Source of the DNA: a virus
Taxonomy: Duplodnaviria > Caudoviricetes
Virus record (IMG/VR): IMGVR_UViG_3300035208_008180
DNA length: 64,000 nt
Reading direction: 5' to 3' (one strand)
The notes below the pieces were generated by a model. It was not told where the DNA came from. It saw only the letters and a program-made list of their open reading frames with translations, and ran no database searches. The position numbers were made by a program, and so were the translations under genes. Below, one piece after another: positions 57,398-58,532 of the stretch. Numbering within the stretch: the stretch's first letter is position 1; each line of letters starts with the position of its first letter.

Positions 57398-57523
57398 TCC
57401 GTCCAAGTTACAAAAACTGTTTTTGGTAAACAATGCAGGAATTGAACCAGCATTCTTCAGTTTTCAAGACTGACGCTCAACCATTGAGCTAATTGTTTGT
57501 AAGTTTTAGTGGTATGGGACGGA
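57398..57523 (-). ncRNA. Y1: complete tRNA-like cloverleaf (anticodon UGA, encoded CCA) enclosed by the Y-like stem
   Basis: Core 57424-57498: AAACAAU/AUUGUUU-ACCA, GCUC D arm, UCAGU-CUUGAAA-ACUGA, UUCAAUU T loop. Confidence 0.8.
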
Positions 57524-57526
57524 AAG

Positions 57527-57655
57527 TGGAGGGTGTTGGATTCGAACCAACATTTTTTCGTTTTCAGTGAAAAAAGTTACCTTTTGTTTGTATGTCTCTC
57601 AGGTGTGGGACAATTGCTTGTCCAAGTTTGGGAAACTGAACGTTTTTAACCCTCC
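57527..57655 (-). ncRNA. Y2: tRNA-like (anticodon GAA) with the permuted Y-like stem inserted in the D arm
   Basis: Acceptor GGAGGGU/ACCCUCC-A; T arm GUUGG-UUCGAAU-CCAAC; insert ACUUGGAC..GUCCCACAC..UACAAACA. Confidence 0.78.
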
Positions 57656-57665
57656 AAAGTATCAG

Positions 57666-57792
57666 CGGGGAAGATGGGATTCGAACCCATAATTTTTCCT
57701 TAACAGGGAAACTTTTACCAATTGTTTGTATGTCTCTCAGGTGTGGGATGGTCGCCCATCCAAGTTTGGGAAACTGAACTTCTAACTTCCCC
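57666..57792 (-). ncRNA. Y3: tRNA-like (anticodon GUU) with the Y-like stem inserted in the D arm
   Basis: Acceptor GGGGAAG/CUUCCCC-G; UUUCC-CUGUUAA-GGAAA; AUGGG-UUCGAAU-CCCAU. Confidence 0.8.
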
Positions 57793-57882
57793 ATGTGCCC
57801 GGTTTATAATTCTCTGCCTGCAACCGGAAACCCGGCAGAAAAGCCTCCAGTTATTGGTTTATCCCAAGAGGCGAGTAATCAG

Positions 57883-58008
57883 ACCCGGTGGTAGGAGTCG
57901 CACCTACAATCTTTTCCTTAGGATGGAAACGCTGTTTGTACGTCTCTCAGGTTTGGGATAATTTCTTATCCGAGTTTGGGAAACTGTTTGCTGTTTAGCT
58001 TCACCGGG
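57883..58008 (-). ncRNA. Y4: tRNA-like (anticodon CCU) with the Y-like stem inserted in or next to the D arm
   Basis: Acceptor CCCGGUG/CACCGGG; UUUCC-AUCCUAA-GGAAA; GUAGG-UGCGACU-CCUAC. Confidence 0.78.
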
Positions 58009-58013
58009 ATATT

Positions 58014-58172
58014 CATAAGGCAAACATTTGATCGTCCAAGTCGAAGAAACTGTTTTTTGCAACAATGTTGGATTCGCACCAACTACCGAAACTTTATGGA
58101 AGTTTTGCTCTACTGATGAGCTAATTGTTTGTAAGTTCCGTCAGTATGGGACGATCAAATGTTTGCCTTATG
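58014..58172 (-). ncRNA. Y5: tRNA-like cloverleaf (anticodon CAU) enclosed by the Y-like stem
   Basis: 24-bp perfect outer stem; GCUC D arm; AAACU-UCCAUAA-AGUUU; GUUGG-UGCGAAU-CCAAC. Confidence 0.8.
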
Positions 58173-58183
58173 TTGATTTTACC

Positions 58184-58360
58184 GACGCAAGCAAGTGTTG
58201 GCCCGTCCAAGTCGAAAAAGCTGTTTCACATAGTGACAGTTTAATAGACTGTTGCCTTTACCATTAGGCTAAAACACATTTTGGCGTGTTTGTTGGATTC
58301 GAACCAACAGATTGTTTGTAAGCTCTGTCTGTGTGGGACGAGCAAACACTTGCCTGCGTC
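58184..58360 (-). ncRNA. Y6: circularly permuted tRNA-like domain (anticodon AUU) opened at the variable loop
   Basis: Order is T arm, acceptor hairpin AAACACG-CCAAAA-UGUGUUU, D arm GCCU, anticodon ACAGU-CUAUUAA-ACUGU. Confidence 0.8.
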
Positions 58361-58532
58361 AACATCATCAAGCTTCCGTCTGTCCAAGTTGAAGAAGCTG
58401 TTCAACTTTTGACAGTTCCAATTACTGGTGCCTGACCGTTAGGCTACATTCCTTGCGGAATGATGGGAGTCGAACCCACTTATTTGTTTGTAAGCTCCGT
58501 CTGTATGGGACAGACGGAAGCTTGATGATGTT
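58361..58532 (-). ncRNA. Y7: circularly permuted tRNA-like domain opened at the variable loop
   Basis: 25-bp perfect outer stem; T arm GUGGG-UUCGACU-CCCAU; acceptor CAUUCC-GCAA-GGAAUG; D arm GCCU; atypical anticodon loop AAUUGGA. Confidence 0.8.

Follow-up and report, generated by a model that had tools for sequence, protein, structure and literature searches.

Ro60 proteins bind the terminal stem of Y RNAs (PMC4201824; bioRxiv 10.1101/312249; PMC12135203). Two of the described Y RNAs, YrlA and Yrn1, are tRNA-like and are encoded beside rsr (PMC4201824). YrlA lacks both an anticodon loop and a free CCA end, and the module by which it binds Ro60 is a continuation of its anticodon stem (bioRxiv 10.1101/312249), in agreement with an earlier note on the DNA studied here, according to which the Ro-binding stem of YrlA takes the place of the anticodon arm. 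Phages have such systems as well. One phage-encoded Ro60 has been shown to bind Y-like RNAs of the phage and to be able to recruit the host polynucleotide phosphorylase (PMC12135203). In this work we analyze a 64,000-nucleotide stretch of phage DNA (IMG/VR record IMGVR_UViG_3300035208_008180; "the window" hereafter), whose minus strand carries, upstream of a Ro60-like gene, an array of RNA elements that share a common structural "handle" and mostly hold a tRNA body. Iyer et al. (2021) described a few jumbo phages with a TROVE protein and a tRNA-like partner and gave nothing further on such arrays, and our literature search found no paper on handle-on-tRNA arrays or on multiple wirings of handle and tRNA.

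The array itself is confirmed. It extends from promoter to terminator over positions 56986-58697 and comprises nine handle-bearing RNAs, seven of which (Y1-Y7, 57398-58530) carry tRNA bodies, joined to the handle in three different ways. It is very likely that these units are partner RNAs of the Ro60-like protein. We also consider it probable, with some reserve, that the locus is a Y-RNA-like operon of a huge phage of about 340 kb whose units display tRNA features on that protein; Ro60 binding and the display role are both what we infer. On its sequence features the array would be a multi-copy, multi-wiring variant of the Ro60/Y-RNA particle, unpublished so far and presumably akin in function to YrlA and Yrn1 but outside the Rfam families RF02553 and RF00019.

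The Handle and the Ro60-like Gene

The 5′ half of the handle reads (G/A)UCCCA(H)AC, followed by eight variable letters and NN-UACAAAC; the 3′ half reads A(C/G)AG(C/U)UU..., followed by about six letters and ACUUGGA(C/U). Together they form a basal stem ending in GUCC/GGAC, a conserved internal loop and a covarying helix 2, after which comes UACAAAC. The pairing GUCC[C]A/UGGAC presumably resembles the bulged Ro60-binding helix of animal Y RNAs. A search for TCCCAHAC-N10-TACAAACA with at most one mismatch gives nine matches, where shuffled sequences lead one to expect 0.01; every one of the nine lies on the minus strand, within 57036-58651. The span that the earlier note had assigned to the array, 57398-58532, holds Y1-Y7 but leaves out two further copies of the handle, Y0 and Y8 (Table 1).

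The window lies at the end of C200, a contig of 340,072 bp and 40.5% GC in a 6.2-Mb assembly whose other contigs average 65.4% GC. C200 has 63 ordinary tRNA genes plus a transfer-messenger RNA (tmRNA) gene, and it encodes an RtcB ligase and a CCA-adding-type enzyme. Because of these features, the GC contrast and the gene content of the window, we conclude that C200 is a huge-phage genome mis-binned into a bacterial metagenome-assembled genome. A prophage of the GC-rich bacterium is ruled out by the difference in GC and by relatives on viral contigs of 350-600 kb. Across the whole assembly, a looser handle pattern forms a cluster at this array only; five other matches are single and scattered.

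The product of the gene next to the array combines a TROVE-type ring with a vWA domain that has the DxSxS signature of a MIDAS (an adhesion site dependent on metal ions). As modeled with AlphaFold 2 (predicted local distance difference test score 79.7), it is a Ro60 fold, i.e., a HEAT-repeat ring plus vWA with MIDAS. In a Foldseek comparison with the PDB, the hits ranked 1-10 and 12 are without exception Ro60, Rsr or phiLo Ro60 (approximately 490-580 columns, almost the entire protein; E-values from 2.5e-10 to 1.8e-7; probability 1.00), and these matches include human and Xenopus Ro60, Deinococcus radiodurans Rsr and the Ro60 of Thermus phage phiLo. The last is also the best sequence-level match in the PDB, although a weak one (E-value of the profile 0.002); the identity of the two proteins is approximately 14%. 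The MIDAS residues D355, S357 and S359 are invariant across 21 homologues. Homologues match the Pfam family vWA_Ro60, and P0027, one of two tested, passes the cut-off with 30.7 bits; for the window protein itself, Pfam and PHROGs gave no useful match. The family is large and unannotated, with more than 2,000 relatives at an E-value of 0.001 or less among the 8,000 candidates scored, many of them at about 57% identity on contigs of 350-600 kb. In one homologue, P0001, the protein is 95% identical. The assembly has a sole TROVE match, to another gene, located on the GC-rich contig C145; when the Ro60-like profile was compared with it by hhalign, the vWA part alone was aligned, with a probability of 8%.

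Three Ways of Joining a tRNA Body to the Handle

In class A (Y1 and Y5), the handle extends the acceptor ends of a full cloverleaf. The conserved handle letters ACAAAC double as the 5′ acceptor strand, and the 3′ acceptor strand continues through a short A-rich linker into the 3′ half of the handle. Acceptors of this class are consequently one uniform, weak A/U stem set by the handle motif, whatever the anticodon. Y1 has the anticodon loop CUUGAAA (anticodon UGA), a short variable loop and an encoded A-CCA after the acceptor. Y5 has the loop UCCAUAA (anticodon CAU, with C33) and no encoded CCA.

In class B (Y2-Y4), the tRNA has normal ends and the handle itself is permuted: it is written as 3′ half, 8-nucleotide loop and 5′ half, giving a hairpin placed between the acceptor/U8 region and an anticodon arm of five base pairs and seven loop nucleotides, next to which come a normal T arm, the 3′ acceptor strand and the discriminator. 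The acceptor stems of all three units pair 7/7. Y4 holds its handle hairpin inside the D loop, which is closed by a D stem GCU/AGC, and its anticodon stem pairs 5/5; Y2 and Y3 retain a GG-containing remnant of the D loop 3′ of the handle. The anticodon loop of Y3 is also found on class B units of two related phages (L002 and L006).

In class C (Y6 and Y7), the tRNA is permuted and opened at the variable loop. The 5′ half of the handle comes first; after it stand the T arm, the acceptor hairpin, the D arm and the anticodon arm, and the 3′ half of the handle closes the unit. The unconstrained minimum free-energy (MFE) fold of Y6 returns all six helices. As claimed before, the acceptor loop of Y6 contains CCA, reading G-CCA-AAAU. 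The anticodon-like arm of Y7, CCAGU-AAUUGGA-ACUGU, has four base pairs, a C.U mismatch and A33. Y7 has orthologues in L002 and L015, and Y6 has one in L015 where the loop CUAUUAA is kept and the stem is compensated. Long outer duplexes of approximately 22-25 bp flank Y5-Y7.

These three topologies, with the same assignment of units, had been proposed in the earlier note, and they are borne out by the ARAGORN and Rfam matches, the positional parse, the MFE folds (Table 1) and covariation. Against the Rfam tRNA model RF00005 (threshold 29 bits), Y6 scores 27.0 bits, over its D and anticodon arms, and Y4 16.9 bits; these two units and Y2 and Y3 fall below the threshold because of the insert or the permutation.

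Table 1. Positions in the window of the elements of the array and of the adjoining genes
Feature	Positions	Strand	Structure	Basis or remark
Promoter-like site	58751-58778	-	TTGACA-16-TATAAT, 12/12 consensus	Directly upstream of first RNA element
tRNA "top half," handle-free	58658-58697	-	Acceptor-like stem, 6/7 pairs including G.U; canonical T arm GUUGG-UUCGACU-CCAAC	Sequence reading (tentative)
Y8	58565-58655	-	Handle with non-tRNA cargo (8-bp G/C hairpin)	Handle match, 1 mismatch; MFE z = -3.0
Y7, class C	58363-58530	-	Outer stem of ~25 bp; acceptor hairpin closed by GCAA	Rfam YrlA partial match, 58430-58479; MFE z = -3.7; class C covariation
Y6, class C	58187-58357	-	Acceptor AAACAC/GUGUUU with 8-nucleotide loop; anticodon arm ACAGU-CUAUUAA-ACUGU	MFE z = -3.7
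Y5, class A	58017-58169	-	Outer stem of ~22 bp and handle halves around full cloverleaf, 58059-58130	ARAGORN tRNA-Met(cat); Rfam tRNA 46.3 bits
Y4, class B	57883-58008	-	Acceptor CCCGGUG/CACCGGG; anticodon arm UUUCC-AUCCUAA-GGAAA (CCU); T arm; tail U-CUG	Positional parse; MFE z = -4.9
Y3, class B	57666-57792	-	Acceptor GGGGAAG/CUUCCCC; anticodon arm UUUCC-CUGUUAA-GGAAA (GUU); T arm; tail G-CUG	Positional parse; centroid fold; Rfam tRNA partial, 26.6 bits
Y2, class B	57527-57655	-	Acceptor GGAGGGU/ACCCUCC; permuted handle hairpin; anticodon loop CUGAAAA (GAA); T arm; tail A-CUU	Positional parse; fold; Rfam tRNA partial, 25.3 bits
Y1, class A	57398-57523	-	Handle halves around full cloverleaf, 57427-57498	ARAGORN tRNA-Ser(tga); Rfam tRNA 69.9 bits; MFE z = -3.2
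Small open reading frame	57086-57316	-	76 amino acids, between Y1 and Y0	Own promoter-like site, 57387-57360
Y0	56986-57067	-	Cargo-less handle, leader of Ro60-like gene	Exact motif match; MFE z = -5.6
Ro60-like protein	55393-56997	-	TROVE-type ring and vWA, MIDAS DxSxS	Fold and profile matches

Related Arrays and Covariation

We read the DNA upstream of 16 homologues of the Ro60-like gene: L002 and L003 (LR756511.1, 595 kb), ten IMG/VR loci and the shorter loci L014-L017. These lie on IMG/VR contigs of up to 572 kb, on LR756511.1 and on metagenome scaffolds, and protein identity is approximately 50-75%. All 16 carry copies of the handle upstream of the Ro60-like gene and on its strand. Among the 12 fully parsed arrays, class A is present in 11, class B in nine and class C in six, and L014-L017 contain further units of all three classes. 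We also ran a strict class B pattern over IMG/VR. Structured matches were confined to five contigs, all of which encode a Ro60-like protein; of the 18 matching stretches, 12 were isolated chance matches in coding DNA that showed no structure. The handle and the Ro60-like gene are shown to be exclusively linked.

Compensatory changes support the proposed folds. For class A (16 sequences), 23 of 30 pairs are compensatory and 93.5% of positions pair, compared with 72% in shuffled controls; for class C (six sequences), the figures are 25 of 38 pairs and 96.5% compared with 74%. In neither class did any of 500 shuffles reach the observed value by any measure, and when partners were slid against each other pairing dropped to 30-46%. 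RNAalifold, run unguided on a MAFFT alignment of class A, predicts both handle helices and the D, anticodon and T arms; for class C it predicts the acceptor hairpin as well, with six of seven acceptor pairs compensatory. The same procedure on class B recovered the handle hairpin and the T arm alone, because the acceptor and the anticodon arm were misaligned, and for this class a position-anchored parse with a cross-unit control took its place. By this parse, all 28 class B acceptors (nine arrays, 21 distinct sequences) pair 7/7, compared with 3.9% in the cross-unit control under the same search. Class B units have G/C-rich 7-bp acceptors and canonical T arms, and most of them retain the D stem and G18G19.

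Anticodon Loops and 3′ Ends

We examined 51 anticodon arms from 12 arrays. The stem pairs 5/5 in 46 of them, with 36 distinct stem sequences, and matched strands form 4.86 pairs on average compared with 2.32 across units. The loops keep the canonical positions: C32 in 37 arms, U33 in 43, a purine at 37 in 44 and A38 in 44, with 24 different anticodons. Some loops are found in identical form on more than one wiring: CUUUUAA is shared by classes B and C, CUUCUAA by classes A and B, and CUAUUAA by class C (Y6 and its orthologue in L015) and class B (L005). This combination of well-paired but diverse stems, canonical loop positions and loops shared between wirings supports the earlier proposal that selection acts on the anticodon arm. 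The claim that the arm is left intact is thus upheld far outside the window, subject to small corrections within it, namely the imperfect stem and A33 of Y7 and the C33 of Y5.

Conservation of the loops across homologues, the lack of which the earlier note had named as refuting its proposal, is divided. CUAUUAA (Y6 and its orthologue), CUGUUAA, CUGAAAA and CUCAUAA are kept between phages, whereas the loop of Y7, AAUUGGA, is CUACGGA in L015 and UUUGAGG in L002, with identical T and D arms. The kept anticodon of Y6 is AUU, which to our knowledge is not a natural bacterial anticodon. Anticodons of the Ser, Leu and Tyr types stand on bodies without a long variable arm, and the anticodons of most array units are already covered by the 63 ordinary tRNAs of C200. 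U-ending anticodons (Lys, Asn, Met, Arg, Thr and Ile types) are found in 30 of 50 array units and in 17 of 63 ordinary phage tRNAs (odds ratio 4.1, p = 5e-4), an excess that is suggestive and not more because the units are not independent. Two related arrays contain anticodons that would read stop codons, CUA (amber) in L014 (147-300, class B) and UCA (opal) in L007 (6701-6790, class A); nearby genes fit the standard code.

The ordinary tRNA genes of C200 end in N73-C and then U in 62 of 63 cases, and an encoded CCA is seen in none of the 63. This tail is shared by 36 of the 49 ordinary tRNAs in related phages (L005, L006, L008 and L016) and looks like a clade-wide 3′-processing signal. Class B units carry it as well, given as N-C-U-U, which suggests that they are probably trimmed and provided with CCA in the manner of real tRNAs. 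Their discriminators are G73 in two of three units with GUU and A73 in five of five units with CAU. Free acceptor ends are found in class B alone; those of class A are extended and those of class C are closed in the acceptor loop. Class A cannot be finished by the tail route, and there the CCA is encoded instead, right after the discriminator, in 10 of 16 units. Among seven class C units, five have acceptors sealed by GCAA or UUCG tetraloops, so that no tRNA ends could form, and two (Y6 and one in L008) have N-CCA and a 4-nucleotide linker in the acceptor loop, on an acceptor stem of 6-7 bp. Since CCA is hard-coded both in class A and in these two acceptor loops, it appears to belong to what the units display.

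Comparison with Known Y RNAs and Permuted tRNA Genes

The locus resembles that of YrlA in several ways. The array stands beside a gene for a Ro60 fold, approximately 25 nucleotides upstream of it, an arrangement repeated in the 16 related loci; a terminal stem made by the 5′ and 3′ ends carries the tRNA-like module; and class C units (Y6, Y7 and orthologues) have the order T arm, closed acceptor hairpin and D arm. Unlike YrlA, class C keeps a separate anticodon arm of five base pairs and seven loop nucleotides, and the handle exits between that arm and the T arm, in the variable loop. Published YrlA loci have approximately 2-4 Y RNAs, compared with roughly 3-18 handle-bearing units per array here, and wirings A and B have not been described for YrlA. 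At the gathering score, the YrlA model finds no match in eight related loci.

Class A shares its general wiring with D. radiodurans Yrn1 (PMC4201824), in which the handle is likewise formed by the ends of the RNA and T-like and D-like arms have an "anticodon arm" between them. Yrn1 has a 6-nucleotide loop, no variable arm and a doubtful D arm, whereas the class A units form full cloverleaves, reach up to 70 bits as tRNA and often encode a CCA. Thermus phage phiLo (PMC12135203; PDB 9KOP, 9L5Y) also has a phage Ro60 with partner RNAs, Yrl1 and Yrl2, upstream of its gene; these two RNAs have a CGAA bulge and are not presented as tRNA mimics (PMC12135203). A further parallel is provided by Mycobacterium smegmatis YrlA, which in vivo undergoes cleavage by RNase P and addition of CCA (PMC4201824). 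The N-CCA and linker layout of Y6 and of the L008 unit is predicted to permit RNase P cleavage, which would give a two-piece RNA held together by the handle. Unlike in M. smegmatis YrlA, the CCA of these two units is already encoded, and most class C units are sealed by tetraloops. For YrlA an origin from a dimeric tRNA has been proposed, and units of the Y6 type, with T arm, acceptor 3′ strand, CCA, linker, acceptor 5′ strand, D arm and anticodon arm in this order, resemble the intermediate that such an origin would entail.

In circularly permuted tRNA genes (Cyanidioschyzon-type) and in split tRNAs, the 3′ half precedes the 5′ half in the gene, and normal tRNAs mature via a circular intermediate. 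Class C shares this order, and the halves of Y6 are joined by CCA and a short linker. The differences are that in class C the break lies in the variable loop and is closed by the handle, and that the acceptor is usually sealed.

Possible Roles of the Units

At four sites an extra helix should spare the L shape of a tRNA: the acceptor ends, the D loop, the variable loop and the anticodon stem. In the mechanism that we propose, the handle would dock on the Ro60 homologue encoded just downstream, and the tRNA body, joined to the handle at one of the first three sites, would keep its L shape. YrlA uses the fourth, the anticodon stem; in the units of the array, by contrast, a canonical anticodon stem-loop always stays free. 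The particles would display the anticodon loop, the elbow and sometimes a hard-coded CCA to tRNA-recognizing proteins and might act as tethers or baits in a phage-host contest over tRNAs. A host anticodon nuclease, an aminoacyl-tRNA synthetase, an anticodon-modifying enzyme or RNase P could be the partner. Because two wirings block charging and all wirings keep the loop, the anticodon loop (with the elbow, and sometimes CCA) would be the part offered to it. We give about an even chance to the anticodon loop being the working end; that the targets are defense nucleases seems to us possible but unlikely.

This proposal bears on what the tRNA mimicry of bacterial Y RNAs is for, since the phage family amounts to a natural experiment in which a common handle is retained, the attachment point moves and the anticodon loop is kept. 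Such a pattern suggests that the functional end is the anticodon loop, joined in some units by the CCA end, and it provides substrates for a partner search. The tRNA counts of huge phages would moreover be inflated by Ro60-partner RNAs, part of the apparent tRNA load not being ordinary tRNA.

Several results weigh against a Y-RNA-like operon displaying tRNA features. The Ro60-like protein does not match Pfam TROVE (PF05731) at E-values up to 0.01. The YrlA model matches Y7 alone, with 27.7 bits against a gathering score of 69, and does so over the tRNA-like part (model positions 31-81); Rfam Y_RNA (RF00019) has no match at E-values up to 10 in 57000-59100. The GNCGAAN0-1G motif of bacterial Y RNAs (Chen et al. 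2014; PMC4201824) is absent, with no CGAA in the nine 5′ strands of the handle. Some anticodon loops differ between orthologous units, which relaxed constraint would explain equally well. Finally, class B has free tRNA-like ends and the 3′ signature of the phage's tRNAs, and some of its units may be working tRNAs.

The most serious alternative, raised in the earlier note for anticodon nucleases and other tRNA-targeting toxins, is that Ro60-bound mimics are decoys that absorb or trap host defense toxins which cleave tRNA (PrrC, RloC, PARIS AriB, colicin-D/E5-like enzymes, VapC or Cas13) and so spare the real tRNAs. Such a role would fit a canonical loop that is left free in all three wirings while two of them, by an extended or a GCAA/UUCG-sealed acceptor, preclude charging. 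It would also fit the turnover of loop identity among close relatives with identical T and D arms (Y7 against L015 and L002) and the re-mounting of identical loops on different wirings. The excess of U-ending anticodons would speak for it too. Anticodon nucleases classically attack Lys, Asn, Arg and fMet tRNAs, and the phage carries RtcB. However, the reading names neither a nuclease nor a host, and stoichiometric bait would be weak against catalytic enzymes unless it bound very tightly. A strategy of replacement and repair is already present in the 63 tRNAs, RtcB and the CCA-adding-type enzyme; class B seems to be processed like real tRNAs; and there are handles with non-tRNA cargo or with none. 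On balance we hold the decoy function to be unlikely, though plausible. It is tempting to extend it to a counter-defense armory, in which each Ro60-bound unit would be an uncleavable or trapping bait with a different anticodon loop, the wirings would set the angle of presentation, and a captured nuclease would be neutralized on the particle, possibly by the conserved ThiF (E1-type), JAB and small Gly-ended proteins whose genes accompany that of Ro60; we regard this extension as improbable.

A second alternative is that the units are working tRNAs with a tag. At least class B, and class A after RNase P cleavage and 3′ trimming, would be matured, charged and used in translation, and the handle would serve Ro60-dependent stability, folding, storage or regulation. 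Class B is tRNA-like in its acceptors, T arms, mostly kept D stem and G18G19, anticodon-fitting discriminators and N73-C-U tail. Class A scores 46-70 bits as tRNA and often ends in CCA, and M. smegmatis YrlA offers a precedent for processing by RNase P and addition of CCA. Nevertheless, a handle hairpin of about 50 nucleotides at the elbow would probably clash with the ribosome, and class C acceptors are tetraloop-sealed. For classes A and C, the uniform A/U acceptors of class A regardless of anticodon, Ser and Leu anticodons on bodies with short variable loops, the anticodons AUU, CUA and UCA, and the duplication of anticodons would argue against decoding; Tyr anticodons without a long variable arm point in the same direction. 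We consider that tagged, working tRNAs have a low probability.

Still less probable, and in our judgment very much so, is that the handles are stalks for processing, or inserts resembling introns, which RNase III, or an endonuclease together with RtcB, would take out to release ordinary or re-joined tRNAs. The outer duplexes of Y5-Y7 do resemble RNase III stalks, RtcB is phage-encoded, and class C shares the gene order of permuted tRNA genes. However, cargo-less handles are conserved, including one within the Ro60-like mRNA leader; GNRA or UUCG tetraloops close the acceptor in five of the seven class C units; and the conservation of the internal loop and of UACAAAC is much stronger than a simple duplex would require. 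Rfam finds no intron or ribozyme match in the array. On the cargo-less handles, the sealed acceptors and this lack of an intron core we reject splicing, an outcome that the earlier note had named as one that would overturn its own proposal. Decayed tRNA genes or chance similarity, which would account for the several units under the Rfam tRNA threshold, are refuted by nine motif copies where 0.01 are expected, by covariation in which most pairs are compensatory and none of 500 shuffles reaches the observed values, and by conservation of the design across phages whose proteins are approximately 50-75% identical, so that their probability is practically nil.

Other Elements of the Array and Neighboring Genes

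Besides the seven units with tRNA bodies, the array has elements of other kinds. The first one after the promoter, the "top half," is without a D arm and without an anticodon arm; its assignment is tentative, as the MFE fold favors another, irregular hairpin. Similar consensus promoters stand ahead of the arrays in L002 and L003. The MFE fold of Y8 consists of basal stem, internal loop, helix 2 and cargo hairpin. Other cargos occur in related arrays too, namely cargo-less handles, small hairpins and a structured cargo of approximately 300 nucleotides that follows the 5′ half of the handle in L003 (2715-3010) and L011 (4429-4725), with 84% identity over 123 nucleotides; in L011 it is closed by a matching 3′ half. 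The start of this cargo is reminiscent of 23S rRNA, but the cargo matches no Rfam model, those for rRNA among them, and BLAST finds nothing like it in the assembly, and the idea of an rRNA mimic was dropped as unsupported. The 90-nucleotide spacer between Y4 and Y3 (57793-57882) contains G/C-rich hairpins (GCCGGG...CCGGUUGCAGGC) with features of neither handle nor tRNA.

After Y1, the basal stem and the U run that comes next probably end the array transcript. Y0 lies approximately 25 nucleotides before the likely ATG (56961) of the Ro60-like gene. In three phages, that of the window, L002 (3960-4000) and L003 (5945-5990), the Ro60-like mRNA has a cargo-less or miniature handle in its 5′ leader, which suggests that the Ro60-like protein might exert feedback control through its own predicted RNA-binding site. 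A U-rich run follows Y0.

The open reading frame of 76 amino acids between Y1 and Y0 is kept at the equivalent place in L002, L003 and L014, and its relatives there end in Phe-Gly; it matches no Pfam family. In the minus-strand region 48755-57316, downstream of the array and the Ro60-like gene, we find genes for DUF5662, NADAR, Prok-JAB and ThiF (E1-like) proteins and a weak vWA protein. L003 and two metagenome contigs likewise have JAB and ThiF linked with the Ro60-like gene. Homing endonuclease genes (GIY-YIG, LAGLIDADG and HNH) occur in and around the Ro60 locus of several phages (window 51444-52163 and 45372-45905; L014 404-970; L016 4471-5040). On the plus strand, 59162-64000 encodes two adjoining large proteins with long collagen-like Gly-X-Y repeats, which are probably fibers.

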